A DNA stretch of 63,990 nt, counting the filler, from Porpidia crustulata (taxonomy: Eukaryota), in NCBI GenBank assembly GCA_964255105.1. It is 4 parts of 4 records of this genome, joined end to end, with 100 filler letters (N's around TTAATTAATTAA, not from the genome) between each part and the next. Parts side by side here need not be neighbours in the genome. Positions count along the whole stretch, not along the records: positions 16,207 to 32,297 come from CAXUWE010000274.1; 3 more parts are not named here. One strand, written 5' to 3'. The first letter of the stretch is position 1, and each line of letters starts with the position of its first letter. The notes beneath the pieces are model-generated. The model had not been told where the DNA came from, did not search any database, and saw only the letters and a program-made list of their open reading frames with translations. This document shows, piece by piece, positions 826 to 56,268 of the stretch. Made by a program: the position numbers and the translations under genes.

Positions 826-3800
826 CTATTCCTGAGCATCATGCCAATCTTCCGATTCCACTTCCTCATCCTCAATCCGTTGGCCACCGCTCTTGGTCGA
901 TTGTCCATCGCTTGATATTGATTCTTCGTCAGGGGCCATGGATTCGTCGTCAAATTCCAGGGATTCGATTCTGCTTCGGGCGGGCGAAGACTCGTCCGAG
1001 GTCGGGTCGACGATGCTGTCCATGAGTCCCACAAATGCGGCGTACCATCTCTCCGGCCCTTCATCAGGGGTAAAAATGAAGAATTGTGACCAGTCCACGT
1101 TATAGTCTCTTCGCCACTGAGCGTTCTCTAAAGCCGTCGATCCCCACAAATCTCGCTTTTCGACATTGATACCCTTCAATCGGGCAGAGCAAAGAATGTT
1201 CAAGAATGCAATGTCGCCAGAGTATGCTGCGAAGTGAAGTATGGTCTCTTGCGTGTCATTGTCTATGAATTTGTAGTTAAGCTTTTCGTCACCAAGGAGA
1301 ATCTTCAATCCCGGTCGGTGGGAGTATCGGATTGCATCGTGGATTGGCTTCTCGTTGTACTTATCTTTCTCATTAATGTCACCACCTTGCGCTAGCAAAA
1401 ATTCTAGCGTTTGAGTATTGTTGTGTTCAAGTCCTATTTGGACTGCATTTCTGCTAGAGCCGTTCTTGGCAGCGATGTCCGCCCCGGACTTCACAAGTAG
1501 CTTTGCTATTTCAACATTGCCATGCCCGGCGGCAAAATGTAGTGGGGTCTCCCCATCATAGTCTACATTGTTAACATCTGCCCCTCCACTCAGCAGGATA
1601 TTCAATACCCCAAGGCCTGATTTTCCCAAGAGTGCCCAACATAACGGAGTCTCGCCTTCTCGGTCCCTCTGATTGGGGTCAGCTCCGCGAATCAAAAGCT
1701 GCTCAACAGTGTCGGCATCGTTCCGTTGCGCGGCCCACAAAAGCGTGCTTCTGTGGTAATTATCGCCTTGGTCAATCGTGTCTCTAGGGCATGATTCTAA
1801 CAGCTCTTGAAATGATTTGCTGGATATCCCTAAATACGTCTCATGTAGTTCGGTAAATCCAAAGGTTTCCAGCAAGCACTCGAAGAGGTTACGCCTACCA
1901 ATGTCGAGTTCACTAGGAGAATCTAAACCAAGACTTGGCATCCAAGCCCGGCCTGAGGGACTGTTCCCAAAAATGTCTTGAAGGTTAGGGTCGGCGCCAG
2001 CAGCAATTAAAAACTTTATAACGTCCATTTGGTCATATATCACTGCCAACTGATAAACGTCAATACATTGCAATCAATCCAAGGCCAGATTACGCCTACA
2101 AGAAGGGCTGAACAATTGCTGTCATCGACGTCAAGGACTGGTGCTTTCCCATCGGTAATTAAATGTTGGACGTGGGAGACCTGGCCGGTGCAGGCCGCTA
2201 CAAATATATCTGCAGTATCAGGACGAACCCTTAAAGTCCTTAAGCAAAATTCGGGGCCAGTCCCTTAGGATTGTCAGCCAGTCCGCGCATCTATTTGACG
2301 AGTCTACGGTGCAACTGATTTCTTTGGATTTGAGCGGCTCATCGATGATGGGAATCTGATGTTGATAACAATGATATGTCGACCAGATATTCAGGAGAAA
2401 CAAAACTCTAAATGGTGAAGAGATGTTTCTCGGTAACCAATCTGAGTGTTGGGCAGTCATAGGGTGCTAAAGAACCACGAAAATATCACGCAGCTGCTAG
2501 AGAATTGTAGAAACTCAAGTCACAAGCATTACAGAAGTACAGTATTCCGAATAAGGTTAAGTGAAAAGTGAAAAGCGAAAAGCCTTGAGTCCTAACTATA
2601 TTCGAAGGATGTACTGGATGACTGACCTTGATGGCATGCCAAAATCATAGAGATGCCCCGACATAGAGCCCAATGTGGGAATATGTAGACAATTGTGGCG
2701 GTAGCTGATGAACGGCCCGTACAACGAGTAGAGTCGCATTTGCCGTCAAATAGACTCGGAAAAGCAGAGTAGCCTATGAAGAGCGAGCCAAGGACACTAC
2801 TTAGGACGCTCGAACTCCTCAAATGACGCTGTTTATGGCAAGAACAATGACAAGTGACGTTGCAACGGCTACTGAATCGGAGCTGGAACTGTGTGTTGCT
2901 GAAGGGTTTTGCCAGAACTTCTGAGCCTCGAGCTGATACATCAGGACTATTTGTGGCTATAGATGCGTGTCCGAAATCTACTTCTCTCGAGGCGTCCGTG
3001 GTGTTTAGCTGGGAGCTAATGTCGAAGCCAGTAGCAGGACCAATATGTTGCAGTGCGTCTCTCTCTTGATGTTCTTGTTGAAGCGTTTCTATTACGAAGG
3101 TCTCTAGAGGCTGGTTTTGATGGACAGCCCGGATCGTAGTTTCTACATGTTCTTCGAAAGATTGACGCCTTTGCAAATCTGTGATGACTTGTAGGCTCAT
3201 TGACCTTTTCGAGTCAGCTATTGTTGACAATAAAGATTCTCAAAGGCCTAAAGTGATTCAACATTCTAGAATGCCCTCGTGTGTAGGGGGTCAATCGAAA
3301 GATGCAGTAAGGTTAAGGAGTAAGAATGGAAGCAAACGACCTAGTCTAATGGCGGCATATAAATAGCCTTAAAAAAAGCTGCTTTCAAGGTTCCTAAAAG
3401 TAGAAGACATGATGGACGAGGATACCATAGACCCAACATAGTTCCCTTCCAACTCAACAGACACGAACACAAAACCAAAGCACTGATTGTGTAGACGGGA
3501 AGGAACAATGTCTTGGCACTCACGAAGTCAACACGGTGGAAGCCACACCTGAGTTCTCCCTGTCATTCCAGAGCTTTCGTCGCAACTCCTCTAGTTGACG
3601 TCGCGACTGCATCCACGCCCCTTTCCGGAGCTTGACTTCATTAGTACGACTGTCAACGTTAGTGAGCTTGTAAGCCATGATTTGCTCGAGTTGCAGCAGC
3701 GTCCCTTTCAAATTCTCTAGTGCCCTACAGACACTTTGAGTGATCGGTCTCCCTACTATGTCTTGATAACCTCGCGTCAAACCATGAACGTCCTGCACCA

Positions 3801-16206: not shown

Positions 16207-16673
16207 CGGATACCGTATTAACAGCTGATACCCCGAGTACCGTAGTACTAATCAATTAGTTACCCTCAGCCCCTACCCCCCCCCCGAAGGTGGGGGGTGG
16301 CTGTTTGTCAGGGTCCTCGCCAAATTCCTAAAAAAAGGCCATTGCGCGCTCCTTCACCCCCTGAAATTAAACTCAGAACTTACTGACGCACGTGACTTAG
16401 TGTTATGCTACGATCACTCTCTGAGACACATGAAGTTCTCGAATACTCGTAACACTGTGGCAACGCTGGTCGTAAAGTATCTGTGAGAATCATCAACACC
16501 AGGCAATCAAACTCTAACCTGCCCATGTTCGAATACAAAACATAGAACATGGCGTGAGTGAACTACATGTGAAGTACCTGTATACCGCTGCAAAAGACCT
16601 GAACCATAGACTAGGACGTACGCCTTTCCTTCACGCCTGCGGCCCACACCAATTAAAATACCGGCCTGGATAC

Positions 16674-16706
16674 TTTTGCGGAACCTTTTGCGGAACCTTT
16701 TCGGAA
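16674..16706. repeat. Short tandem repeat, 12-bp unit (CTTTTGCGGAAC), ~3 copies
   Basis: cttttgcggaac cttttgcggaac cttttcggaa read directly. Confidence 0.7.
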
Positions 16707-16749
16707 AGATCAAAAGGCAGAAAGATCTTTAATAAAATAAAGACCGTGA

Positions 16750-17678
16750 CCTGAAGCTATTCTGCTGTCAGCAGTTTTCGATCGAACGGTGAACCGCCTC
16801 GATCATATCGTCGCAAGCGATATTCATAACGACTCTTCAAGACATCTCAGAAGAATCAAAACTATGAACATAAACGATAGAAGTCTCGCGACTATCGAAG
16901 CTGTTCTCAATTCTCTTTAATCACGAGAGAAGATAGTTCTCAAATCCAGAGCGAACATCTGTATAATTTCGAGATAAGTTGTCGTACGAGAATCGTACAT
17001 CTCGTCATAAATCATTTCAGGTTGCACAGACAGTGAAATACTGTCAGCTCATACATTGAAGTAAATCACGAACGTGAGCAGATCTTCACTGAAGATGAAA
17101 ACGAGATGTTTCGAGCAGAGAAGATGACTATACGTGAGGGAAATGTTATCAGCAAAGAAACTTTGAGGCGTCAGTGATTGCTGCGTTCTTGATCGAGAAT
17201 CTACAGGAGCACTGCCAACAGATTGACTACGAGAAGTGATAGAGCAACATCGATAATAAGCCATGAACGTAGGTTACTGAGGCAAAGATACTGAAGAGAC
17301 CTCAGCTTTGCTTAAGTACAACGGCATGCCGCCCTGACCTCATGTATAATTGGTAGCATCAACAACACTCCTATCGTCACGATGGAAACTGGCCTTGATA
17401 ATTCTAATATGTTTGCAGTCAGTTTAACGATTGAGAAAGGAATCGATCATCATATTCTGCTAGTACAGTGAACGATAGATATTCAAGATGAGAAGCAGAA
17501 GCGTTTTCGCGACATGAAGAAAGTCAATATCTGCTTGAGATAGAAGAATAGACTTCTGAAGGATAAATTTCGAGAAACGAAGTCTCGTCACAAAGAAAAA
17601 CCAAGTTCCAAGACTGACGCCAGAACAGAGTAAAGCAACTGTAGAAGTTACAAGTTGAAGAGCTGAAATCATGTCCAC
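16750..17678 (-). pseudogene. RIP-degraded gene of unknown family with hydrophobic N-terminal segment
   Basis: ORF-track fragments 17460-17678 and 17049-17264 share one frame, which continues across isolated TAG/TAA/TGA stops. The translation looks Pro/Gly/Trp-poor, as expected after C>T/G>A hypermutation. Confidence 0.5.
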
Positions 17679-18967
17679 GATTGATTCACAACATTGAGAC
17701 TGCTTTCAACGATGCAAGGAAAATGGTGGACATCCTTCTCATTTATCACTTCATTATAGTTAAATAAATTTCTAGAAGCCCGTCAGACTACTACGATCGC
17801 GGACTGCTTATTCATATTTCGCGACGGGTCATGCGCTGCACATCAAGCGATGCTTATGAAGGAAGCACTCAGCTTTGACTTGAGATTCCAAAGAATAATC
17901 CCTATAGCTGACTATTTACTGCATACAGGGATGTCTTGAAATCTGGAGTGCGTACCCTTGTACCGAATTTTACGGCAGGTTCAAGACTTACGGATGTACC
18001 AGAACAGCCATACGTCCTATACTCCCATGTGTCCTATACTCGTGGAGACAATGCCGACCCTCAGATGGATACTTCATGTAGGTTCGAAATTTGCAGGGCT
18101 CAAGTCGACTCTGTGTTCGTTGAGCATATAATCATTTGAATAGTTCTCCCGGAGACAGCGTAGCCGCATATGTCATTCAGCCAGGTATGAAGCTGATTCT
18201 GGACGGAGGCGGTGCTCGCTCTGCCCATACTGAATGGAGAAAGTGCTGCCTCTGGGCTGCGGGAAGTGACATTCGAAAACTTACACATCGATAATATTCG
18301 AATTGTGGCTAGCAAGCTTCACTTGTCCTTCTTGTTTGGATGTAAGCTCCTTTTGAAAGGCGTCTTCGAAAAAGTCACTCATTCAGCGCTTGTGCGTCGT
18401 TCGTATCCCCTGGTGGCCCCCTTCGGCCCCCGCTCTTCCGAAGGTGGACATGATAACTCCAGTGAACGTCGGGATGGATTTGGCTGTGCGGTCAATTGAT
18501 CAAGTGATGACTTACTAGACGGATTTGGAGCTTCTAATAATGAGCTCAACGATCGGACAAGACTACTAGTTTCTCGTAGCTAGGACACGACTCGAATTCT
18601 TGTAGCGAGCGAACGGAAGGACGAGATTCTAATGCAAATGAGCGCAGATCCAGGTTTTAACTTACAGAATGTGGTGGTGGTACGCAGTGGTGTTGTTATC
18701 GTTGTTGGGAGACTCGAGGTTTACTTGAGCATCAGAGTTTAGAATCAGGACAGCCCACGCCTCTTTGACGGCAAGCTCGCGATTACAGCACCTATGCTGC
18801 TGCTCTTACTGTTGCTTTACACGTTCCACTTGCAAAGGGTTTTTCTCGATGCAAGCCGGCAACGATTTTGGGGGGGTTGCCCCGCATCAAATCCTTGTGA
18901 TGAATGAGGCTGCGGCTTGGGTCAAGTGAGTGAGCGGCGTATCAGTCCTCCGCCGAGATCGAGTCGG

Positions 18968-20810
18968 CTAGGCGTCTCTCCCTGATGAGAGCTTCAAGAG
19001 CGTCAGTAGTAAGCTGAACCTGATGAGGAAAACGCTGCAGCCCGTACCAGCAAGCCCCAGCGCAACCAAGAAGGATGCCAGGCAATATAAGCAGCCCACC
19101 CGCATACCTTCCTCATAGCTCGCGTTCACCGCCGCCGCATCCTCCTGTCTAAGCTTCTTTACGGACTCCAAGCCCTGCTCGATCGCGTGCAGCAAGTCGC
19201 GCACCGTACGCGGGTCAAAACGCTCGTGCAGCCGCTCACGCAGTGTCTGCTGGACCAGCGCTGTGGTAATCTCCAGCCCGCGAGCAGTAGTAAGACGTAA
19301 TAGCGGCCCGTATGGCGCATGACCAAGCCGCCGGTGAGTGAACCAACGATCGAGCCGGCGGTCGTAGGTAGTAGAAGTAGACCAACCTGTTGGGTGTTCA
19401 GCTGCGACATAGTGTGGAAAAGTAGAGGCACGTGAAAAATTAGCGCCATGTGCGCACCAAACTCGAAGAAGTTGCAGAAGTAGCAAGCCAAAATTGAAGG
19501 CGTACTGATAATGTGCCAGGGCGCGATTAGCTCCACGGCAATTGCGGCTTCGATCCAGAGAAAGACAGCAATGAGGATCGGGGTGGCGGCGAGGAGGACG
19601 ACCGTACCGGCGTCGTTCCAAGCATGGTGAACGCTGCGATCGAGGCCGAGTAACAGCGCACAAATGGACAGCATGATGGCAAGAGCGCCGGCAAAATTTA
19701 TGCGTCGAATCTGCTGTTGCCATTCGTGCGCACAAGACTGGTATGACAGAGTCAAGCTGACTCCGATAAAATCCAGCAGGATGATGAGAAGCCGTACGAA
19801 GAATATCCTGGCTAGATCAGCTTAAGCAATGTGATGATGATAAGCGGATAACAAACCAGCACCAGTCGATTGTGTTTGAAGGTATACCACCTGCAAAAGT
19901 ATCAGCTTTTCCCTTTCCGGTAGATGTAAAAGGCTCCGGCCACTAACTGATGGGGATTCCTATAGCGGCGCCTGCCGCATATGCCACACTCAATATTCCA
20001 TGGCAGAGTCCACGGTTGCGCGGCGAGACGTGATCTGCAAGCACCATCATAGTCAATGACAAAAGACCGCCACATCCAATGCCTGCTACGGACTATAGCA
20101 TGTCGTCAGCGTAGTTTAAACAAAGCCATTGACTCGGAAAGCTCCACATCATGAAACGCTGAGAGGGCGATGAGAAATTGGGCTGGACGAGGTAAATCGT
20201 ACCCGTGCCAGGATGATCTGAGTTATGTTCCGTGCGAGCCCGCAGAAGAGGCTGCCCACGCCGAACGCGAAGTAACTAAGCTGCACCAATAGCTTGCGGC
20301 CGAAAATATCGCTCAGCTTCCCATACAGTGGCTGGCAGCAGGTGAGCGGAACAAAGAAGCTGGAGCGCTGCCCGCGCGTGAGCAGCTGGGAGAAATGCAA
20401 AGGCTCTTTGCCGGAAAAGAGGGACGCACGCTGTGGCAATCCATGATGTCTGGTTGAGCGCGTGGAGATCGCTCCCGATCGCCCCGTAGGCCGTCAGGAC
20501 GATTGTTGTATCGAGGGCGGCGAGGAAGACCTAATGGTAGCTCGTGAGTTTCCGAGGCGCAATCAGCGGCGGCTTGCGGGGCTGTTCACGCCGATAGCCA
20601 TTGCCGCTGCCATGGCAGCGACGCGGGGCCTTCCCTCCGCATTCTCCCCCCCCCCAGCAGTCGGGTCGCCTCGCTGGCGGAATTGGAGTTCCCGTCCGCC
20701 TCTGATGGATTGTCAGGCCACGCAGCGTTCAAGCCATTGCGTTCAGCAAGTGCCGATGCCAGCAGCGGCGAAGGGGGGAACATTTCGCAGTCCTTAGTCT
20801 TCTGCTCCAT
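18968..20810 (-). pseudogene. MFS transporter, 14-TM DHA2/Vba-like, disabled
   Basis: Spliced exons give VFLAALDTTIVLTAYGAIGSDLHALNQTSWIATA, QPLYGKLSDIFGRK, VAGIGCGGLLSLTMMVLADHVSPRNRG and RRINFAGA. Frameshift at or near the C10 run (20646-20655). Frameshift plus apparent loss of several C-terminal helices near 19275. Confidence 0.8.
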
Positions 20811-21483
20811 CGACTGAGCAAGCACGGAAGGATGACTTTGGCTGGGTACACAAGGCTTTTCCGTGAGAGTGAGAGAAGAATTCCTAAGATCAAGCGAGGA
20901 AACGAAGCACTTACATAGTAGATGTAAAGCTGCCGAGCTGGACCCTACCGGCTTGCCACGCTCGTTGGGATTGAAAGGCTGTTCACTCGTGTGGCGATAC
21001 CGTATCGAACCCCACCATAGCTCGAGATCTCGCTGCAGAGAATTACCTACCGATGGAGACTTGGCTAAGACTGGCCGATACGATCTGCGAGCTATATGAA
21101 GACCACCCACCACCGTGCCGGGAGACGTACGCGATATTTCAAGGAGGGCAAGGAAGAATCAGCCTTGATCGCACCAGCCAGCTTTGGCGGCGGGGGCTGG
21201 CGCGCCCTTGATCAAGGGAGTACTGTCTGTAGGCACACCTCGAACTACTGGGTGTGCTTGCAGATAGTCCTCTTACGAATGACAAAGTTGTTGGGGATTA
21301 TCTTGGCACTCTAGATGCAGTACTACGCATACTAGCTCCCTAGAAGGAAGGGGCAGAATCAACCTGCCGTAGCACCACTGACTGCGGAGATAAAGAGTGC
21401 TGAACATCAGCTCTTCCTCCTATCATGACTAGCCCACTCATCAAGCTGCCGACGCACAGTTACCGTCGTCAGGTTTGAGCAGA

Positions 21484-22363
21484 ATGTTCTCTGTCATCAT
21501 AATTTTCTTACCTCTGGTCACACTTTGTTGATGTCAGCTTCACAATATGCTCTCTTGAGACAAGGCAATCAGCCATCCCACCGCGCTGATCATGACTTGT
21601 GTGGCAATGCTCAAGTATGGGACCTGAAGAAATTCAGCGCCCTGATGGCTTTCGGAGACAGCTACACGGATGACTGCCGTCTCGACTACTTCTACAATAG
21701 CCGGGGCGAGCCACCTCCTGTAGTTTGGGTTAATCCCTCAAACAACGACTCCGTATGTGGTGATTATCCTTGACCGGATTGAGTTCATTGATATAGCGAA
21801 GCCCGTATCTACAACTACGTCGTTTCTAGCGCCATTTATTCGAGTCGAATCACACTCAGGTTTTCCCCCATCACCAACGCGAATCTTCCGGACATAGAGC
21901 AGTACGAGGTTCCGGCGTGGCTTGCCGACAAGCAGTATGTCGAGCCAAGTGGAACAAAGCTCTTTGATACGCCGCCGGATGAGACGGTGCACTCCATGTG
22001 GATCGGCACAAACGATCTCAACATGGGGACTATGCTGGAAGACTCGCAGCGTCCGGGCACAAATATCTCGACTGCGTTTTCGATCAATTGCAACGTATCT
22101 ACTAAAGCGGTGCAAGATATTTCGTTCTACAGAATCTTGTGCCGTTCCATTTGTCGCCGTTGACCGCCACGCCCGAGAACGGAGGCTTAGGCCCAAATTA
22201 TTTCTGGCCCGCAAAGCTACCCAATTCGACCGCCATCAGCTACAAGATGATGGAGACGGCGGTAACAGCAAATATGGTGTATCAGTACCGTACACCGTTC
22301 GAAGTCATGTTGGCTAGAAGGTTTCCAGGCGCCCGATTTGCGCTCACGGATATGTATCGACTG
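21484..22363 (+). pseudogene. CE16 / GDSL (SGNH) acetylesterase, 5' part, disabled
   Basis: WDLKKFSALMAFGDSYTD (block I), YNY.VS, SMWIGTND (block III), VPFHLSPL, YQYRTPFE, DMYRL, then donor GTAAGT at 22364. In-frame TGA stops at ~21771-21792 and frameshifts. Confidence 0.85.
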
Positions 22364-22485
22364 GTAAGTCTAGCTTTTCCTCACAACCTGAGGGTACGGA
22401 GATTGTATGCTTCGTCAACTTACAACGAGCTTTGTTTGCCACTATTGGCCGTTATATGAACCCTGATCATTCCGTCTAAGCTTCG

Positions 22486-23442
22486 CTAGATATCATATCG
22501 CGCCCGTCGCGCACCCTCGTCCTCCCGTAGTTCGACCTGAACACGGCCCGTCGTAGCATCCCGGCCATGGAGAACAACACTTCGCAGATCAGACACGATC
22601 CAATCGGCGCCGCTCTTCGCTAAATGATCGGCGGCGTGCGTCGTTAGCAGCGCGACCACCTCGCACCCGGCCGCCCTCCCTGCTCGGACGCCGACAGGAG
22701 AGTCCTCCAACACTAGCGTTTTCGCTTCGGGTGATAGACCAAGCTGAGATTGCGCAAGCCTGTAACCGGCGGGGTCCGGCTAACCACGCTCGGCCTCCTC
22801 GGCCACGACTGTGGTCTGCGGGCGGGCCAGGTCGAGCACCTCCAACCACCCCTGCAGGATCGCCCCGGTGCCCGACGTGACTATTGCTCACGGTACGCTC
22901 AAGTCGTCGCAGGCTCGTAGGATATCATGCGCGCCCGCAATGACCTTGGCGTTTTGTCCGAAGTCGGTGGGAATCCGCCCCTCGATCTGAGCTACATTTA
23001 GCATGACAAGTCGCGGCGGTCAGCCAATCACACATTTGCAAGCCCGCGATCCTAAGATCGCTATGTAACCTATCCTCATCTCGCTTGAACACTTCACGGG
23101 CCAGACTTACAGTCCCAGTTGGCTTTGCTTAGATCGTAGAGAGCAAGTGTATCGATGGTCCGTCTGCCATGTGAAGTGGCCAGGATCACATTGGGGTCCA
23201 CGCCCAGCTCCTTGCCAATTCTATTTGTCCCAAGGCCAGCTTCAGTACTGCGCACTCATCTGTAGGGTGACATCGTCAGTCGGAAAGTAGGAGGCTCACT
23301 TGTGCCAACTTTTCGCGCAGGCCGCGGTCGAGTCGACCAGCGTTCCATCCATGTCAAAGAGGAGCGCGTCAAACGAGTGAATTGAGCCCGTTACGCCATT
23401 CTTGCTCTCAGCAGTGTTGATAGCGACAGTGCTCACCATCAT
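22486..23442 (-). pseudogene. HAD-family glycerol-3-phosphate/2-deoxyglucose-6-phosphate phosphatase (GPP1/DOG1-like), disabled
   Basis: LLFDMDGTLVDST, SHGRRTID, AIVTSGT, G*PDP and LEDSPVGVRAGRAAG across three exons. In-frame TGA at 22890-22888 (expected Trp), TAG at 22782-22780 (expected Lys of GKPDP), and the second acceptor reads AA instead of AG (~22998). Confidence 0.9.
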
Positions 23443-24076
23443 CTAGACAGCAATACTCAATGAAGTCAAAGTGGCAAATTACGTGGTGCCAAATAACTCT
23501 TGAGAATAGTCGATGATGGAATAATTGTGATGTTGTTCGATGAGGATGATTCAGTAGCCGACGGTCATGATACGCTAAGCGGGTGGCTTGGTGAAGCGAA
23601 TAGCCGATCTACGGGAATTTATACATTCGCATCCCTCTCACCTTTGAAATCTCGGTCCCTACTCGTCGTGGGTGGTGGTTCTGTAGCCCCCACGCCCCTT
23701 CTTGTCTCCATGGCCGATTTTGGTTTCCCATCATTCTCCTGCAACTCTGAACTCTGTTCCAACCGGCATATGCAACGCCTGCATCCCGACAGGCGCCGTG
23801 ACGTGAGATCAGCGTCCCTTTCCCATGGCTGAGCGAGCTAAGCGATCTCACCATAGCTATCTACTTGCGGGAATTATGCACGACATGTCATACTGCAACC
23901 TGCGTCGATGATGGTCTCTACTAGCATGCACCTGGTGTTTGATACTATGCACGGTGGGATGGTCAGTCCATGCAATGTCTAATTTGTTAGTTTCTTCGGT
24001 GCTAATGAAATGTAGATGATTGGATCGCTCTTGGAAAAGCAATTTATCCTACGCTTCTCGAAGGATGCTTTACCAC

Positions 24077-24316
24077 CTAGCCTGCCCAACATGTGGCCCA
24101 AGGACTTGCTCCCTTGACCACATCGATGAATGCCGACGCAACGATGCGATCAGCCTGCTCGCTGAGGTGCTCTGGATCGAACCAAAGGCAACTATCCGGA
24201 CTGGGTTGGCGCGTGCAGCCAGTGATATCGATTTTGCAGTGCTTGATGAACCCTGTCACATTAAGTGATGCCGTACCGCTCAAGTATTCACTTGGGTTGT
24301 TCCATACGTCTAGCAT
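24077..24316 (-). pseudogene. Terminal exon of the CE16 esterase, on the opposite strand to its 5' part
   Basis: Branch GCTGAT, then CAG|ATG. Translates MLDVWNNPSEYLSGTASLNVTGFIKHC...SPDSCLWFDPEHLSEQADRIVASAFIDVVKGASPWATCW, including the SGNH block V DxxH motif. Confidence 0.85.
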
Positions 24317-24909
24317 CTGGTTGCGCCAACCCATCAGCGCTCAGGCCCAGCGTGTGCAAACTGTTGCTACTCGCTCTACTATTTTCCCTTCTGCCTTTTC
24401 GATCTTGGAGCTGGAACAGGCCGCAGCGATGTCCGTCACTCTTACCCCACGCAAGTGACCTTTCATCCCGATATAGTCAACCCTGTTAATAGTGATATCG
24501 GATGTAGTGATACTCTGAGGATATCACTATGAGGTGTAGTGGCATGCAGGAATCGATCTGGACTAGCCTAAGGAATCAGTTCAAAAGGGGTAGGTCATAC
24601 GGGAGTAGTCAAGCTCTATGATCTTCTTGTGCTCCACATAGCTGCTTGAACTTCGCATCACAACCAAGAAACGTACTAACGAGTGAGAGATAAGGGAGGA
24701 TAGCCCGGCATAGCCGCTAGATAAGGTAGTATATATAGACTAGGATCTTCCGAGCTCTCAACGATCAAAGCATTTTGACTTGTATCTGAGAAACCCGCGA
24801 GGCGCCGTGGCTGGATCCGTCACAGAAAAACGACAATCTGGAAGCAGAAACACCTTAATTCCGACATTCTTGATTTACCTGAATACGATTGCAAAAGAGC
24901 ACAGATCAG

Positions 24910-27516
24910 ATGCCACAGTTACTTGGAACACCAAATTGGCCCCCGCAGAAAGGGCAAGCGAAGGCCATCGACATCGCCGCCAAATTCCGCGACTACTGGG
25001 TTGTGCCTGGCATAGACGAGGTAGGATTTGCTAATGGGATCATTGGCAGCGTCCCCTCGACCATACTCATCCAGCGGAGGTATTTGGCTGAGCGCAAGAT
25101 CTCGATAGACGAAGTCCACAGACGTGTCTCGTCGAGACGCGAATGGAGCCAAGGCGACATGGTCACCAACGAACTCGTCGTGCATGCAAAGGTTGGCGGG
25201 ACAGTGTTAGTCCTTTCACCACATGGCGAAGAAGACTCCTGAGGGACCAACATACCCTTTCGCCTTGATGAGAGTGGATCTTCGGCTAGCGTGGCCTTGG
25301 TATTTGGGCGTAACGGTGAGGCAGAGGTCCATAAGACATGCTCGCACGACGGCATCGATAATAACGGACGCCCATGGTCGGAGACGCAGCTGCGGTTCCT
25401 GCAGTCGAGCCTTGCTGTGAGGGAAACAGGCATCTTCGTGAAGCCCTTGAGGCACAGAGTAGCCGAAGGCACCGTCTCCGTCGCTTTCCCGTATGTCCCT
25501 AGCCACTCGTTGGCAGCGATGGCGTTTGCAGGCATGAACGCCGACTCGTTACTCGTCGTTGTCAATGATCTACTTGGCGAGATGGCCGCTTGTGTCTGGC
25601 CCAAGAGTGCTGTTCCAGGCCCCGATGACTTTATCGAGCACGCGCACTTCAGTAGGATGAGGAGGCGTGTCGCGACCGCGCGCGCCGCGATGCCTGAGCT
25701 CGACGACGTCGCTGGCTATGACTGGATCACGCTGAATGGCAGGCGGCTGCTTGGGTTCGACCGTGTTCTAGTGGCATTGAGTCGCCATCCCAAGATCAAA
25801 AATGTCGCTCCGCGGAAACTGGGCGAACTCCATGGCGATCTTAACCTTCAAAATATACTTTGTCAATTGGGATCCGACGCGGATAGGCCGATCGTACTTG
25901 TTGATCCTCGAGGCGTTCCCCTGCTTAGCGAATTTGCCAGGCTTGATACTTTCGAGCCAGGCGACTATGCCTACGACATCTCGAAGCTGAAATTCTCGTT
26001 GTCAGGTTTCTCAGAGATCAGAAAGGGGTTATACAACCTGCAAGGCGAAGGCAGATTGTTTGAGCTCCTCATGATAGACCATCCAGGTTCAGATACGATG
26101 CGTGGCGCGGACAGTGGGCTTATGTCGACTTTATCGTCCAATCAGAGGCTGGTTGAATGGATCGATGTTGTCGAACGTTCAGGGCTTGGTTCATTGGAGC
26201 TGAGGGTGCTGCTGGGGGAGGCGGCAAACTTTGTCGCGGACTGCGCCTGTGCCTTGGGAAGGGACAAGAAGGAGGAGGTTCTACCTTTGTTTCTGATAGG
26301 CCTTGCCAAGCTGAACGACATCCTCGAGGAGATAGAAGGGAAAGGCGGCACTTCCATGGACAGGCAGAAGCGGTCGGTTGAGCTGGAGGTTGCTGTAGAG
26401 AGCCCGCGCTATGGAGCGAAGATGATCCAATCCGCTCTCTTGGGATCATCGGACGCCGGTTGGACTTGGGACGTGCTGGAGGTGCTGGTCAAGTCCGAGT
26501 CAGCGCATGCGGCCCATCGACTCCTTGGAGAGCTGGTGGGGGAGTGCTTGCCAGAAGGAACGGCCGTCCATTTATCGACCCATGCCGTTGATCATATTAG
26601 ATTTCCTTGCGTGCTGATACACCCCTTTGTGGGCGTAAGGGGGCAAACCGACGCGGTGCTCTCCGGCATGCGGAAAACGCATTCCTTCTTAAGGGACGGC
26701 GGGGTGCCCAAGAGGACAACCGACGGGCTGAAGATCGTCACCATCACTTCCACAGGAGCATCGACGCATTCGCAGTACATCGCAAGGGAGAACGACAAGC
26801 TCCTCTCTCCTGGGCCTTGGGGAGTATCCCCCCTCAGGTTGATCGTGCTGGAGGCAAATCAACTCATTTTTCCTCGCGCCGGTCGATGGATCGTCGAGAA
26901 TGACTCCTTTTTTGTCCTTAGCCAGGGCCTGCGTGCAGGAGGAGACTGCCTGTGCCTTCTTACGTCCAAGAAATGGACGACGGGCTCAGCCTCGCCATGG
27001 GGGATGTGTATAGACTCGACGCACGAGAGCGATGGGCGAACCTTCGCGACCGGATTTCGAGACATTAGCCCGCACGAGACGAGAGAGACGTTACTCAAGC
27101 CGACGGGTGCGATGTTTGTGCCAGGCGATCTCGGAAAGTCGCTCGCTGAGATAGGAGAGGACTACGCTACCAGGTCCAGTTCCTTGCTGATCGACTTCGT
27201 ACTCCCGCGCTTTATGCGAAGGGAAACGTGGATCGAATTGTGCCACTCGCACGGTTTTGGTGTCAACTCTGACGTTGCGTGGAGCAACGCCGAACGGATT
27301 ACTGGTCTGTTCCCACAGGTCGAGCTAGCGTATAGCGGTGACACAATGATGTTTCAGCACTTCCGTTCCGATTCTGAGTACACCAGGCTGGTCGATGGGG
27401 TAGGCAAGGATCCTTTGCTCGACAGCTTGACTTATCTCCCCTCAATGGCGGAATGGCTCCGTCATTATACCCGCGGAGGAGTCGCCTCCAAGCCGCCGAT
27501 AGACGCTTCGAAGTAG
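24910..27516 (+). pseudogene. Intronless ~868-codon fusion: APH/choline-kinase-like kinase plus fucose-1-phosphate guanylyltransferase-like domain; one internal TGA
   Basis: ORFs 24889-25242 and 25291-27516 are in frame, separated only by TGA 25240-25242. Kinase motifs HGDLNLQNIL (25831), LVDPRG and GDYAYDISKL. The C-terminal half has FPGT-like motif order (by-eye, less certain). Confidence 0.7.
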
Positions 27517-27749
27517 TTGCCTACTGTATTTTGGAAGGTTGGTGTTGACCGAACCTTTGTCCCAGGCTGGACGTACATGTATTCGAGTCGAAACCGCGGG
27601 GAAAAGGCGAGACGATACTTGTTCCGTTTGAGCATGTCCATGAGGCGCCTTCTCTTTACACATTCTGCACATCTGCCCCGCCGTTTTCACGAAGTCTTGA
27701 TATATTGACGTCCACATTGGAAGGGTCTAAACGCTTTTATAGATAATTA

Positions 27750-27901
27750 AACCGGCTAATTTGATTGTACTCGTATCTCGCTATCGCCATGACCATGTAT
27801 TTTTCGCTTCATATTTTCTTTGTCGCCATGACTGTGCGCTCCCTGTCTGTCAGACTGCATATATACTCATTTCCGAAACCAGGATTCCTGGTTGATAGAT
27901 A
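27750..27901 (+). repeat. ~150-bp direct repeat, copy 1
   Basis: Aligns with 31943-32091; differences are almost all C/T or G/A. Confidence 0.9.
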
Positions 27902-29308
27902 TTCTAAATTACGAATACATCGTCAGCGATGATACGCGGATTAGATTCTCCGTTACAGCAATCTCCAAGAGAGATATCGACAGCTTCACTCATGACTCCG
28001 ACGATGACAATGATGCTGTTGTTGAGGGAAGCTCACGTGCTGAAACCGAAGCTAACATTCCACAATCCAAATCAGGTCGGCTTGCTATTCATGGCCAGAG
28101 AGAAGAATTATTGTGTGAAGTCGGGATCACTCTCACCGCTCCACATAATCCACAATCCACCAATCGAACACACGGTGATTACGTAGGATGCGATAAGCCA
28201 GCCTTGTGCTATCCATGTCCTCCAATTGGTGGCTTCACTAATTGGTCAGCCGGGATATTTCTACCCTCACCAAGCTCCACATAGACCTTCCACCGTACAT
28301 CGCTTCGTCATGGCTCAGCAGCGTTCCCCAGATGAGAGGCTGGTCTATCTCCACTGCTCATCAATCTTCAGCGGGACAAACGCGCACGTTCGAAAGGTCA
28401 AGAAAATCTTCCAGCTTCTGAAGAAGCATAAGTCATCCATCAAAATCCTCACAAAGGAATTTATCTTAATAGCCATTGCTGCAGTTGCGAAAGAGTTGCT
28501 GAAAGAGCAGATTTTCGAATCCTTTTCCTGGGCAAAGCTCCGTTACTCAGAGTTATTTCAGCCATCAGAGACGCGAGAGGCCGAAAGAGAGATCTCGAAG
28601 GCAGAAGTCATTAAATCGAGGCTGAGACAGCACAAGACATAGTTCTGACTTCCGATGACGAGGAAGAAGATGAGTACCTAGACTTTGAGCAAGGCGAACA
28701 GCGGGATGAGCCTGAGGGAACATTAGAAGACAAAGCCGAGGCTATGTGGCAAGTATAAACGCTCGAGACAGGACAGTTACGAAGCTAATTTTCTTGAAAG
28801 CCAACAATCGACCTTTCAAGCACGTCACGCGCTCTCTATTTTCAGACTTCATCCTGTCTATTTGCCATTCAGAACGCAACATAGAATTCTAGTCTCAGTT
28901 CAAATTTTGCTTGAGGAATGCTGTCTGAAGTTCGACAACACTTGAGTTTCAGAGTTGATGAAGGCGCGTAAATGACACAAAGCAGAGTTCATTGAACTTA
29001 CTGAATGAATTAAGAGATTTTCGAAGCACGCTAGGTCTTTATCGTCATCAGTCATCAAACCGATTCTCGATAAAAGCATCGCTGAGATTCTCTTTGAAAC
29101 AAGTATCCTTCGTCACTCAGCTGTTCATCGCCTTTTAACTAGCGCAGCTGAGATTTTGAACATGTTTAGTTCTGCAATCACCTTTGCAGAAGCTCTTAAT
29201 GACCTCAAACGTGCGGGAAGAATAGCGAAAATTAAAACGTAGCTAAAAGCTACCATAGAGGAAATTGTGCAGCATCAAAATCTGCTCGAATGCAAGCTCA
29301 CAGATCAA

Positions 29309-29698
29309 TGTAACGGTTGTTCTAATAACAACACAAGATATAAATAGAGATAGACTAGAGTAACGAACTCCTTGCTACTATAGACTGAGGTCTGCAAATA
29401 GCTTAGACAATAGAACTGATTGTATTGACTATTACATGAGTTGAGCACAAAGCTCCTATCTAGGGAAATGACCTTCATTATATAGACATAGGAGAATCGT
29501 GCCAAGAGCTTTGTGCTCAGCATGCTCAGTGGGGTGAGCCCACTGAGCATCTGGTCTTGCTCAGTGCGCTCACCTTGGTGAGCAAGGTGAGCCACTCTGC
29601 TTAGCATGCTCAGTGCCATGAGCAAGGTGAGCAGACTTAGGCCTACACCTGCCGGGCGTAGCCTACATACTGGGCGGGGTTCCCGCCTGGGGCTAACA
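29309..29698 (-). mobile_element. Solo LTR (390 bp) with 5-bp target-site duplication ATCAA
   Basis: Termini TG...CA (TGTAAC...CTAACA); ATCAA at 29304-29308 and 29699-29703. On the minus strand a GC-rich repeated U3-like part precedes TATATAA, which is the basis for the orientation. Confidence 0.9.
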
Positions 29699-30660
29699 AT
29701 CAATTTGAAGATATTGCGCGTCGAAGAGCTGAACTTGACGAGTTGAAAAGATCTTTCATCGAAGAGATGCTGAAAACGGACGAGAAGCAACGCACTAAAG
29801 TTGGCTCTGCCTTTGAAAGCTTTCTTATTGATTCTCAGCAGATTTTCAATTCTTACGCTTGCAATCATACATCGAGCTTTAACGGAGCGAAGACGAACTT
29901 TAAGACAAAAGAGAACATCGAGAGTAGTTGAATAAATATGGTTCTATATACTCTTTTCTTTCATTTCAAGTCCTGTCTGTTCCTATATCTACTTCTAACA
30001 CTTTCTCTAGATCATAACCTGAAATCCTCAGCCGGAATAAATGAAGCACAAGTCTACGATCAAAGTTCACTCGACGAAGAGAAACTTCATCAAGACGAAA
30101 AGTTGAAGAAAGATGATCAACCTCCTTGTTACGAAAACAATGATGACAGTGTTGAAGAGGAACCGGAAGTCTCAGAATTGATCCTTTCAACTTTAAGATG
30201 TACAGAACAAATGAAAAAAGGGAAGAAGGCTGTAGCATCTGGCTGAGATATTCCTGTAGCTGAAGGTGCATCTATTCTCGGAGATGAAGCTTCTGCTTCA
30301 GAAGATGCGTCGCCTGCCCCATTTTATGTTACTCGTAACATAGGTTTCAAATGATCTCGATACGAAGCTTGAAATCTTGACGCAACTAGTGATATTACTG
30401 CAGAGTCACATAACGCATCTGAGAAAGCTATTCCCGTCGAAGAATTCTGCTTCGCCGAGCTGACGAAAGTTTACCTCACAGATGAGCCTTGCATTAATGC
30501 GTCAGAGGAAGAGGCATTGCCAGAGGATAGCATGCCTGCAGCAGAAGTATTCTTCAAAGAGGACCCAAAAGAAAAGAAAAAAGTTGCTCTTCAGACGACG
30601 CTGAAAGCTTCACAAGCCGAGTCAATCGTCGAAGGCTTCGACGACGTAGAGGAACATATT

Positions 30661-30723
30661 TTCAATCAACATGACAATATTCTCAATCAACATGACAATA
30701 TTGCCGACCAACATGACATTATT
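30661..30723 (+). repeat. 21-bp tandem repeat x3 (encodes NQHDNIL-like units)
   Basis: ttcaatcaacatgacaatatt ctcaatcaacatgacaatatt gccgaccaacatgacattatt. Confidence 0.8.
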
Positions 30724-31355
30724 CCGAACGACTTAGACGATCCATATGAATCAACGCCAGAAGATGACGTCGTTCCAATGCACAGTCCCTGAGCTGAGGA
30801 CGCTGAGTTCATTGTACCGCCTTCAAGGCCTGCTCTTGTTACAGTGCGCGATGAATCCGATCTTCGTCTACCTCATCCGTCGGCGCCATCATTCATAATG
30901 ACTTTCATTCTTGAGACTGCAGTCTCAGAGACGTCAACAAAGGATAGCCACATCATCACGCTCAAAATTCTGAACGGCAGCAAGGTTCTCAGATTCATTG
31001 TCTTTATCAGAGCTTGTACATGGACGACAATCTTAGACGAAGCACAAGCATCTTGCGTGAAACGTGCGCAAGGTGATTGAAGTTTTCGAAGACTGCTGTC
31101 AAAGGAGTGAGGTTTGGCCTTGTTGTCACTAAAAATGTACGGGTACGACATGGACTTGTCGATCTACAAGATTGAGAATTTGTTCTCTATGATTCAGACT
31201 GTTGAGAAAACGGGTATTTCGAGATTTACACTTCGAATCTCTGAGATTTAAAGAGCGTTGAGGTGGAGGTATTGTCCTAATCCTTGGATTTGGAAAACAA
31301 GCTCTACATTTGGGATAAAAGTTAAGTTTTCGATTTTATAATATGGGAAATACTA

Positions 31356-31924
31356 ACCGTACACTCCCTTTGCATGCTCGTACACCCCCTTTTGCATACT
31401 CGTACATTCCCCTCCCCATATGAGGCTTAGGATCACCTACATGAGGCGTAGTGATAGATTTATAAACCTACCTTACCTCTTATCAAATCGCCATCTGCTT
31501 GAAAAATATCGAGCAATTGCACTCTGTTCCAATTCGATCAAAAAACATCTCTTTTAACATTGAAGTGCCATTCAAAAGCCTTTCATCTACCGCCTAAAAA
31601 GACGCCTAGAAGATATAATTACCTCCTCTTGATCCTGACGCCCGCTGTCCGTCTTTCACTCCCGGTTCCTTCATCTTCTTCATCTCTCGTACTTCTGCTC
31701 CTCATACTTTTTTCATTCTTTCGTTCGTTCTCTACATCCTCTTCTTTCCTGTTTCGATGTTTGTTTATGCTTCATCTCTTGTGCTTTCATTCGCGCTGAA
31801 ACACGTTTGAATTGAGAAGCGATTTGATAAGGGCAAGGGTTATGATTCTGGTACTAAGTCTCATTAGAGTGACATTAAACTTCACGTGAGGGGGGTGTAC
31901 GAGTAGGCAAAGGGGGTGTATGGT
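31356..31924. mobile_element. Non-autonomous DNA transposon remnant with long imperfect TIRs
   Basis: The left end ACCGTACACTCCCTTTGCATGCTCGTACACCCCC...CTTATCAAATCGC matches the reverse complement of the right end GCGATTTGATAAG...GGGGGGTGTACGAGTAGGCAAAGGGGGTGTATGGT. TA on the left flank; K/E/R-rich remnant inside. Confidence 0.75.
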
Positions 31925-31942
31925 TTGTGGATCCCTTATTTG

Positions 31943-32091
31943 AATCGGCTAATTCGATTGCACTCGTATCTCGCTATCCTCATGATCATGCATTTTTCGC
32001 TTCATATTTTGTTATCGTCATAATTGTGCGCTCTCTGTCTGTCAGATTGCATATACTCATTCTCGAAATCAGGATTCCCGATTGATAAATA
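31943..32091 (+). repeat. ~150-bp direct repeat, copy 2
   Basis: Aligns with 27750-27901. Confidence 0.9.
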
Positions 32092-32297
32092 ATCAGTGTA
32101 CATGTGAAGAAGAACACTTTAGCGGGTTTGTGTAGGCGGGCTGGAGAGGCGCGAGACAACCCCCTCATCCGTCCTCGTTGTCTGTCCTTGTTTGCCGTTC
32201 GATTCAATCTTGAATCCCTCGTCACAGGGATGTGTGCACTCGCACATGTTCTTAACGGGGTCGATTGGCAGGGAAACGGTGATCTCGGGGGGAGGAG

Positions 32298-55656: not shown

Positions 55657-56268
55657 TACAGACACTAAGATCCCACTATCTATATTGACCACTTATGTGT
55701 AATGTACCAAAAAATCCGATAAGTATAGGTCAGGAAATTGTAGGGTTACGTGTTCTGGAGGATAAGCAGTGGAAGAGAAAGACGGGAAACGCAAAGGGAC
55801 AAGTCTACCTAGTCAAAACGGTAAAAAGAAGATTTAAGAAGTCATCAATTGCGCGCAGAGTGCAGCACTTCTTGCTTTTTGTTTGCAGACCATGGAGGCG
55901 AGTCACAGACCACATGAAATTGGGGTCCAAGGCTGAAGCCACCTCCTTTCCTCTCGCGTGGGGGCCGTAGCCTGATCTGACATCGTCGTTGTCCATCCAT
56001 GGTGTAAACTGTCAAAAATTGATGTATCTAAATAGACAGCAATCTGTTGAATATTTCCAATCTTGATCATATTAGCTTTACGACGACCTGAATGCAAGCG
56101 TAGAGAGGGCCTGAATGTATCTACCTAGTACCAGGAGAAGCCACCAGGCTAGCTCTATTTCGGGTATCTGTCTAAGTCCACACCACGTGACTATCTAGCT
56201 CGCAACTCAGTAGGAGTGCTCAGTTCGACGTGACGTGAGCATTTCACATTCAACAGCCTCCACCAAAC

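Follow-up and report, generated by a model that had tools for sequence, protein, structure and literature searches.

All four genes of an island in the Porpidia crustulata genome were found to be broken, and the island copy in this genome is almost certainly a dead relic. The gene at its right-hand end is the stump of a four-domain enzyme of approximately 1,500 aa that is intact, at 90–95 % identity, in Teloschistaceae lichens. On balance, and with some reserve, we favour the reading that this is what pseudogenisation has left of a horizontally mobile cluster, the intact form of which, judged by analogy with known pathways, would make a nucleotide-activated amino-sugar or aminocyclitol.

The window (the whole stretch of DNA analysed, 63,990 nt) consists of four contigs of approximately 16 kb with N linkers between them, and the island is located on contig C274 (16207–32297). 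The following features were recognised.

18891..27897, no strand: island common to other lichen samples, from comparison with runs X4 and X6
18968..20810, minus strand: MFS transporter pseudogene (Pfam MFS_1 in two frames)
21484..22390, plus strand: CE16 acetylesterase pseudogene, 5' part (PDB CE16 match, E 3.7e-8, and translations)
22390..24350, no strand: segment inverted relative to relatives (opposite-strand joints 22387/22390 to 24347–24353)
22486..23442, minus strand: HAD phosphatase pseudogene (HAD_2, E 3e-16)
24077..24316, minus strand: displaced last CE16 exon with DxxH motif (PDB CE16 match, E 9.7e-5, and translation)
24898..24939, plus strand: what is left of the start of the four-domain gene, ~13 codons (agrees with P0295 at the N-terminus and again from residue 643, where the match resumes)
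24940..26355, plus strand: linker and PKL-fold small-molecule (sugar) kinase domain (fold and motif matches)
26395..27516, plus strand: FKP-type NDP-sugar pyrophosphorylase-like domain (loop STGASTHSQ...K, AlphaFold model and fold match)

The preliminary description had placed four adjacent genes at 18968–27516 (MFS, CE16, HAD and a kinase–nucleotidyltransferase fusion), and all four were recovered by Pfam, PDB and fold matches. The higher GC content claimed for them was borne out, at 0.542 compared with 0.450 and 0.439 in the flanks; the three other contigs were at 0.48–0.49. The supposed lack of housekeeping genes holds for C274 only, the flanks of which gave no credible Pfam match in 12 of 12 frames. 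Several transposable-element remnants had been reported there; the right flank has multi-copy repeats but no recognisable transposase, and the left flank is almost wholly single-copy. No RIP signature was detected in the island or its flanks. The four genes were covered at 93–96 % identity in runs from two other studies, and at 18891 runs X4 and X6 both pass into unlike sequence. Cover of the flanks is absent from X4 and X6, and X8 covers pieces of the HAD and fusion genes without MFS or CE16; missing cover alone was not taken as evidence.

There are lesions in every gene, a point absent from the preliminary description. The MFS pseudogene, presumably of drug:H+ antiporter-like type from its motif, changes frame in exon 1 and, compared with its relatives, has lost 220 nt at 19279 (220 extra letters in runs X4 and X6). 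The two CE16 pieces match the solved CE16 structures 7ztn/8p1g (E 4e-8 and 1e-4) and carry the GDS and DxxH motifs of the family. The 5' part has a hydrophobic signal-like start (position predicted from sequence) and a GDSY motif, followed by a frameshift near 22070 and a TAA at 22103, and is severed within the last intron at 22390. This severing was caused by the inversion, the joints of which were found in both X4 and X6 (two contigs each) and which contains the HAD gene and the last CE16 exon. In the HAD pseudogene the DxDGT motif is intact; a TGA is present at 22890, where relatives have W, and a TAG at 22782, where relatives have K. This pseudogene is 91 % identical to P0219 and 85 % to Gyalolechia Q9178_001151, and differs from the intact paralogue elsewhere in the genome (48–49 % identical), a distinction that had been left to be checked. 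In the four-domain gene, an in-frame deletion with its junction at 24937/24938 removed 1,887 nt (629 codons), and with them the P-loop kinase and DegT aminotransferase domains; the deleted interval has 1887 letters in X6 and 1889−2 in X4. The PKL kinase domain of this copy retains its K, HGDLNxxN and DPRG motifs, and there is an in-frame TGA at 25240 in the kinase part, where P0290 has Q. An intron spanning this TGA was ruled out, the alignment being gap-free there. Sequencing error is an unlikely cause of the lesions; X1, with which the window agrees exactly, is probably where the window comes from.

The kinase–nucleotidyltransferase fusion named in the preliminary description was correct as to its two domains, both confirmed by their folds, but the true core is the four-domain enzyme, two N-terminal domains of which have been lost here. 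In the intact enzyme the order is P-loop kinase, DegT-type PLP aminotransferase, PKL sugar kinase and FKP-type NDP-sugar pyrophosphorylase. Intact relatives (P0290 and P0295–P0298) have AAA_33, PF01041 (E 1e-43 to 1e-47) and both C-terminal domains, and the PLP motifs DSAQS and SxGxPK and the kinase motifs are kept in all eight four-domain proteins checked. PF01041 was present in 34 of 64 near-length homologues and in all five longer ones, and the family profile picks up PDB aminotransferases for sugars and aminocyclitols, the NtdA and RifK structures among them. Neither the lost DegT domain nor the P-loop kinase domain was found elsewhere in this genome, each being searched with one query. 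Two PF01041 matches in the genome read as cysteine desulfurase-like and aminolevulinate synthase-like and hence are not the lost domain. For the kinase and pyrophosphorylase part, comparison of the sequence with Pfam and the PDB returned no match, and both domains were identified by fold alone; as three-quarters of the window's protein is without a Pfam match, the family is annotated as hypothetical. A literature search found no account of the four-domain enzyme.

The kinase domain has the catalytic Lys, HGDxxxxN and DxG-like motifs of PKL-fold small-molecule kinases and aligns with LicA (Z 18.6, rmsd 2.9, 255 aligned); residues K31, H197–N204 and D221 were invariant or nearly so among 42 sequences. 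Foldseek points to sugar 1-kinases, its top ten consisting of maltokinase, glucosamine kinase and N-acetylhexosamine 1-kinase; VIA gives sugar kinases the same rank as choline and methylthioribose kinases. Because of this tie, and because the structure matches share 11–17 % identity, the kinase substrate may be a sugar or another small molecule. Among distant relatives of the kinase there are fusions with NTP transferases, NDP-sugar epimerases, aminotransferases and glycosyltransferases; in P0140 the kinase and pyrophosphorylase domains occur in reversed order.

The last domain was modelled by AlphaFold with a pLDDT of 91.8 and has the GFPP-domain fold, matching 9iis at Z 17.6 (rmsd 3.5, 268 aligned) with the next family at Z 11; Foldseek ranks FKP structures first and second (E 1e-7). 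ESM Atlas gave low-count viral 'hypothetical' matches alone for this domain, which were not used. The kinase of FKP is GHMP-type and C-terminal. The lichen kinase is instead PKL-fold and N-terminal to the pyrophosphorylase. Identity to FKP is 13–14 %, and the lichen chain has two extra domains. FKP, the L-fucokinase/GDP-fucose pyrophosphorylase (9iis, 9iit), remains the best structure match for the last domain and, as described, likewise has a sugar kinase and a pyrophosphorylase in one chain (PMC11982464). Its R80A mutant is reported there as nearly inactive (PMC11982464). With G76, S78, R80 and K89 as loop references and Asp136 as catalytic residue, the position aligned by spacing only with Arg80 was R in 38, H in 9 and another residue in 3 of the 50 sequences that fitted the pattern (23 of 73 did not). 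The lichen clade has His at this position, also by spacing match only, from which its pyrophosphorylase may be weak or altered.

A DegT-type aminotransferase, a sugar 1-kinase and a pyrophosphorylase provide the steps from which bacteria build their amino-sugar and aminocyclitol pathways; we are not aware of any fungal pathway of such build that has been characterised. Iminosugar clusters of fungi and bacteria offer a comparison. In the nectrisine cluster, which is core-less, an aminotransferase gene is accompanied by HAD or kinase genes. The DAB-1 iminosugar clusters are described as similar in these respects, but their aminotransferases are GabT-like, unlike the DegT domain of the lichen enzyme (PMC9092360); iminosugar clusters of both kinds, as described, use an oxidase or oxidoreductase and no pyrophosphorylase. 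In the acarbose GDP-valienol route, as outlined in PMC9200736, the AcbU kinase, AcbJ phosphatase and AcbR nucleotidyltransferase act on a bisphosphate intermediate that is trimmed by the phosphatase and then nucleotidylated, and the same enzyme classes are grouped here. Compared by enzyme classes, that route is bacterial, with separate proteins, a cyclase and glycosyltransferases, whereas the lichen enzyme is fused in one chain with an FKP-type pyrophosphorylase and no cyclase or glycosyltransferase is seen. The kanosamine routes (RifK/L/M/N and NtdA/B/C) share a DegT-family aminotransferase with a phosphatase and kinase, but, as presented in PMC8788734, need a dehydrogenase (RifL, NtdC), of which none is seen here, and have no fused 1-kinase/pyrophosphorylase.

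From analogy with the acarbose route (two kinases, HAD phosphatase, nucleotidyltransferase) and the kanosamine routes, the aminotransferase domain would convert a keto-sugar or keto-cyclitol (phosphate) to the amine, the P-loop domain would add a distal, possibly self-protective phosphate, the PKL domain would phosphorylate the anomeric position, HAD would strip the distal phosphate and the last domain would make the NDP (probably GDP) derivative. This derivative would be used by a glycosyltransferase encoded elsewhere or hydrolysed, MFS would export the product, and CE16, probably secreted, would take off an O-acetyl group outside. Both the product and the sequence of the reactions are guesswork. 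The apparent secretion of CE16 is a poor fit to a cytosolic pathway and counts against the cluster reading. The sugar/polyol activation previously proposed for the module gains from the aminotransferase domain of the relatives, which strengthens the NDP-sugar/aminocyclitol logic, but applies to a pseudogene in this genome. No dehydrogenase, cyclase or glycosyltransferase was found on C274, in agreement with the preliminary description for the latter two.

Elsewhere, directly upstream of the enzyme in the fungal-type locus L006, there is a gene for a nucleotide-diphospho-sugar transferase (PF03407, E 2e-8). This gene, the signal-like start on CE16 and the fact that NDP-sugar pathways are the main users of DegT enzymes would suit a role in which the enzyme supplies an unusual NDP-amino-sugar as donor for decorating the cell wall, glycolipids or glycoproteins, with CE16 editing glycan acetylation. 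We consider this improbable, as a glycosyltransferase was seen at only one of six loci, the MFS exporter and HAD suggest a small molecule, and repeated loss of the enzyme gene (this window, L004 and L007) fits an accessory trait.

In two of the four named Teloschistaceae genomes holding the fusion, the locus tags of HAD and the fusion are consecutive. MFS and CE16 lie together on one contig in X4, and X6 has HAD and the fusion on one contig and MFS and CE16 on another; the two pairs never share a contig in either run. The proposal that homologues of the fusion co-occur with these genes thus survives in other lichen genomes, but only within a narrow lichen clade for the four-gene set, since HAD, CE16 or MFS similarity was found at none of six short metagenome loci from other lineages. 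Non-lichen carriers of the enzyme have other neighbours, which makes the enzyme, not the four-gene set, the stable unit. It is conceivable, if less probable, that the functional unit is HAD with the four-domain enzyme, or the enzyme alone, MFS and CE16 being passengers on a recent lichen-clade island: four-gene linkage is seen only among 93–96 % identical sequences, where synteny alone explains it, and neighbours differ in other lineages, but the island is tightly packed, the three genes measured have similar GC3 (0.65–0.68) and all four genes have decayed jointly here. This question concerns cluster membership and is compatible with amino-sugar activation.

Outside lichens the enzyme is patchy in ascomycetes and basidiomycetes, with Acephala, Armillaria, Colletotrichum, Beauveria and Xylaria among its carriers, and also occurs in bacteria-like records; in quick trees, basidiomycete monophyly was rejected (p-AU 7e-91, 20 named rows). 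Two prokaryote genome scans gave 41 and 26 pattern matches, none of which was confirmed as a relative, and so a bacterial origin of P0082, P0083, P0087, P0103 and L005 is judged from composition and neighbours. Horizontal spread of the enzyme cluster is the best reading. Of ten housekeeping ORFs, six were present in the protein collection, and no named protein joined any of them in a cluster at 90 % (most ORFs being partial or disordered); set against the pseudogene, 92–95 % identical to Teloschistaceae proteins, this is weakly suggestive of transfer of the island. As previously noted, no Starship captain is visible: DUF3435 has 14 matches on other contigs and none on C274, a contig of only 16 kb. 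The lichen Starship Tangerine (PMC13486527) is comparable in that there, too, accessory genes of Teloschistales show signs of having been transferred horizontally, and this genome has DUF3435 captains, but C274 is without one. The main text of that paper makes no mention of an aminotransferase or esterase (PMC13486527).

Such patchy spread over unrelated fungi would also suit a resistance gene, the module phosphorylating, nucleotidylating and deaminating an amino-sugar or aminoglycoside-like compound of thallus or soil bacteria and MFS exporting it. Aminoglycoside and macrolide phosphotransferases have the same kinase fold, FKP is described as a salvage enzyme and no keto-forming dehydrogenase is seen on C274. 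Detoxification or salvage is nonetheless unlikely, given the NDP-sugar pyrophosphorylase fold of the last domain and the fusion of bacterial-type relatives to sugar-nucleotide biosynthesis domains. Aminoglycoside nucleotidyltransferases are not known to have this fold.

The window copy being dead, its local importance is limited. More speculatively, building on the amino-sugar activation reading, a bacterial-type enzyme of three or four domains that starts an aminoglycoside- or aminocyclitol-like pathway may have passed repeatedly among fungi of both major phyla; the Teloschistaceae cluster, complete with phosphatase, esterase and exporter, would make a polar amino-sugar metabolite (e.g. an antibacterial, or an inhibitor of glycosidases, directed at partners in the thallus), and the island would have come here by recent lichen-to-lichen transfer and then decayed. 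If true, core-less clusters with this enzyme would be invisible to PKS/NRPS-centred cluster finders, and the enzyme offers a single marker gene for mining them in lichens, mushrooms, plant-associated and insect-pathogenic fungi. The fused kinase–pyrophosphorylase could serve for making activated amino-sugars, and cultivable carriers make the question of the product directly testable.

The window consists of four contigs of about 16 kb each, separated by N linkers. The island is located on contig C274 (window 16207-32297) of the fragmented, fungal 22.9-Mb assembly, and the four adjacent genes proposed in the preliminary description were all present:

18968-20810, minus strand: MFS transporter (Pfam MFS_1)
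from about 21484, plus strand: CE16 esterase, by match to solved CE16 structures
22486-23442, minus strand: HAD phosphatase
25243-27516: open frame of the kinase-nucleotidyltransferase fusion, with homology continuing upstream through a TGA at 25240

The genes on the other three contigs are ordinary by Pfam (Sec7, forkhead, aspartokinase, protein kinase and GH16) and have no relation to the island. Ankyrin-repeat genes were also observed at 826-3239 (minus strand) and at 53233-55692, the latter NLR-like, with an NB-ARC-like P-loop region by our reading.

As first described, the island is more GC-rich than its flanks (0.542 vs 0.450 and 0.439). GC3 was 0.65–0.68 in the three island genes measured and 0.46–0.59 in nine of ten other ORFs, the tenth having 0.69. 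The right flank is packed with multi-copy repeats (63 matches) and the left is almost single-copy. A search of 12 frames found no transposase or captain domain on C274; matches to the DUF3435 Starship captain domain in this assembly were confined to other contigs, seven in number and many with stops (C1274, C505, C393, C1505, C400, C119 and C909).

Several elements were observed to the right of the island. One of about 390 bp (29309-29700), with an internal palindromic repeat (29514-29633), more than 20 matches in the assembly and very high depth in sequencing runs X1 and X8, sits inside an older element and is missing from the copy on contig C994. Decayed ORFs at 27899-31342, without a Pfam match in the window copy, have a less broken, 85–87% identical copy on C994. 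A multi-copy, MITE-like element of 600 bp (31340-31940) has 50-bp inverted ends (82% complementary), and the two copies of a direct repeat of about 160 bp (27744-27904 and 31937-32094; 84–87%) are spaced about 4.19 kb; the first of them contains the point at which the island's match to run X6 ends (27897).

By sequence, the 757-aa fusion frame had no match in Pfam or PDB. In its AlphaFold model (pLDDT 86.7), residues 1–370 matched PKL small-molecule kinases (LicA, Z 18.6; methylthioribose kinase, 18.5; glucosamine kinase, 17.2), and the Foldseek top ten for this part comprised maltokinase, glucosamine kinase and N-acetylhexosamine 1-kinase. The C-terminal domain modelled alone (pLDDT 91.8) matched the GDP-fucose pyrophosphorylase part of FKP (Z 17.6, rmsd 3.5, 268 residues; next family Z 11). 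The original kinase-nucleotidyltransferase assignment was correct, the models predicting a PKL kinase fold and an FKP-type pyrophosphorylase fold.

The intact core is larger than the 757-aa frame. Among 64 homologues close to it in length, 34 had an N-terminal DegT aminotransferase, and a search for longer proteins gave five, all with this domain and four also with an AAA_33 P-loop kinase. The best longer relative, P0290 (1,452 aa), shares 95% identity over 858 residues and carries Gln where the window has its TGA; its 90% cluster includes proteins from four lichens of the Teloschistaceae (Gyalolechia marmorata, Pyrenodesmia sp., Xanthocarpia ochracea and X. lactea). The four lichen fusion proteins are 90–94% identical among themselves, and PLP and kinase motifs were unbroken in all eight proteins checked. 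The architectures were as follows:

Four domains: lichens, Acephala
Three domains: most fungi; bacterial-looking P0083, P0087/L005 and P0103
P-loop and last two domains: P0001
Last two domains only, with diverged pyrophosphorylase loop: Cordycipitaceae
Three-domain type with separate P-loop gene directly downstream: locus L003

The Cordycipitaceae form (P0035-P0045, e.g. BBA_07996) is conserved at about 870 aa, lacks the aminotransferase, is carried by cultivable insect pathogens and is possibly kinase-only. Distant kinase relatives occur fused with NTP transferases, epimerases and glycosyltransferases. Two giant polyproteins were also seen: P0130 (3,580 aa), with the same kinase plus epimerase, glycosyltransferase, HAD and alpha-amylase domains, and P0140 (5,356 aa), with pyrophosphorylase-like and kinase domains in reversed order.

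Four sequencing runs were aligned to C274: X1, X4 and X6 (the latter two from two studies) and X8 (from a third). X1 was identical to the window and is probably its own source. The island span (18891 to 27592 or 27897) was matched in X4 and X6 at 93–96% identity, and X8 matched pieces of the HAD and fusion genes. At 24937/8 the window copy is shorter than X4 and X6 by 1,887 nt (629 codons), exactly the distance between residues 13 and 643 of the intact relative P0295; this deletion took out the P-loop and aminotransferase domains, of which no copy was found elsewhere in the assembly with the queries used. The segment 22390-24350 is inverted relative to both runs, with a break in the last CE16 intron that leaves the final exon at 24077-24316 on the minus strand. 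The MFS gene is short of 220 nt at 19279 against the same runs, CE16 is frameshifted and carries a TAA at 22103, and HAD has two stops, at positions of W and K in relatives. In the window, all four of the island's genes are dead. Fusion copies at loci L002, L004 and L007 are likewise interrupted by stops or frameshifts, so this gene appears to decay often.

In two of the four named genomes, G. marmorata (Q9178_001151/2) and Pyrenodesmia (Q9184_005269/70), the HAD and fusion genes are numbered consecutively in both locus tag and accession; the HADs of both Xanthocarpia were not seen. The island HAD is distinct from its paralogue, with 85–91% identity to the lichen copies vs 48% to the intact paralogue on C1003. 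In X6, HAD and fusion share an 8,239-nt contig and MFS and CE16 another; both reach window position 24065 at similar depth, unjoined. The length of 8,239 nt is also the one given for the contig of P0219 (a HAD relative) and P0290. No HAD, CE16 or MFS similarity was found at six short metagenome loci (1.9–7.8 kb) outside the lichen clade. That MFS and CE16 are mere passengers is a possibility we consider real, if the less probable one. At one of the six loci (L006:603-1712), a nucleotide-diphospho-sugar transferase gene (PF03407/GT34-like) lies immediately upstream of the fungal-type homologue.

In the kinase-pyrophosphorylase tree, asco- and basidiomycete sequences were interleaved: Marasmius grouped with Fusarium, Phylliscum lay among Vararia, Tulasnella and Lactarius, and Lactarius fell in two clades. 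Monophyly of eight basidiomycetes vs twelve ascomycetes was rejected (p-AU 7e-91) on a quick LG+G4 tree of named rows only, from which several near-duplicates and long branches had been removed; the second tree was a quick 59-row tree. The simplest explanation is repeated transfer, and the interleaving could owe something to ancient paralogy followed by extensive loss, or to mislabelled MAGs. Of the six housekeeping ORFs found in the collection, none shared a cluster with any named protein, which hints weakly at recent transfer into the host.

In acarbose synthesis, AcbJ dephosphorylates valienol 1,7-diphosphate and AcbR then guanylylates the product (PMC9200736); kanosamine routes couple a DegT-type aminotransferase with a phosphatase and a kinase (PMC8788734). 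The intact set follows a similar logic, with two kinases, a HAD, a pyrophosphorylase and an aminotransferase, and would synthesise an NDP-amino-sugar or aminocyclitol. Because of this fit and the kinase relatives in sugar-nucleotide fusions, such synthesis is modestly favoured over detoxification, which appears unlikely, and over glycan supply, which appears less likely still. Counting against synthesis are the lack of a dehydrogenase or glycosyltransferase on C274, the CE16, which looks secreted, and the lichen clade's His at the residue that corresponds by spacing to FKP Arg80 (PMC11982464).

No description of the fusion enzyme or cluster was found in the literature searched, locus tags included, which was mostly the main text of open-access papers, nor in the available portions of PMC13486527, PMC9092360 and PMC4059230. 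The window copy is real but dead, and it leads to a multi-domain fungal enzyme family that is apparently undescribed.
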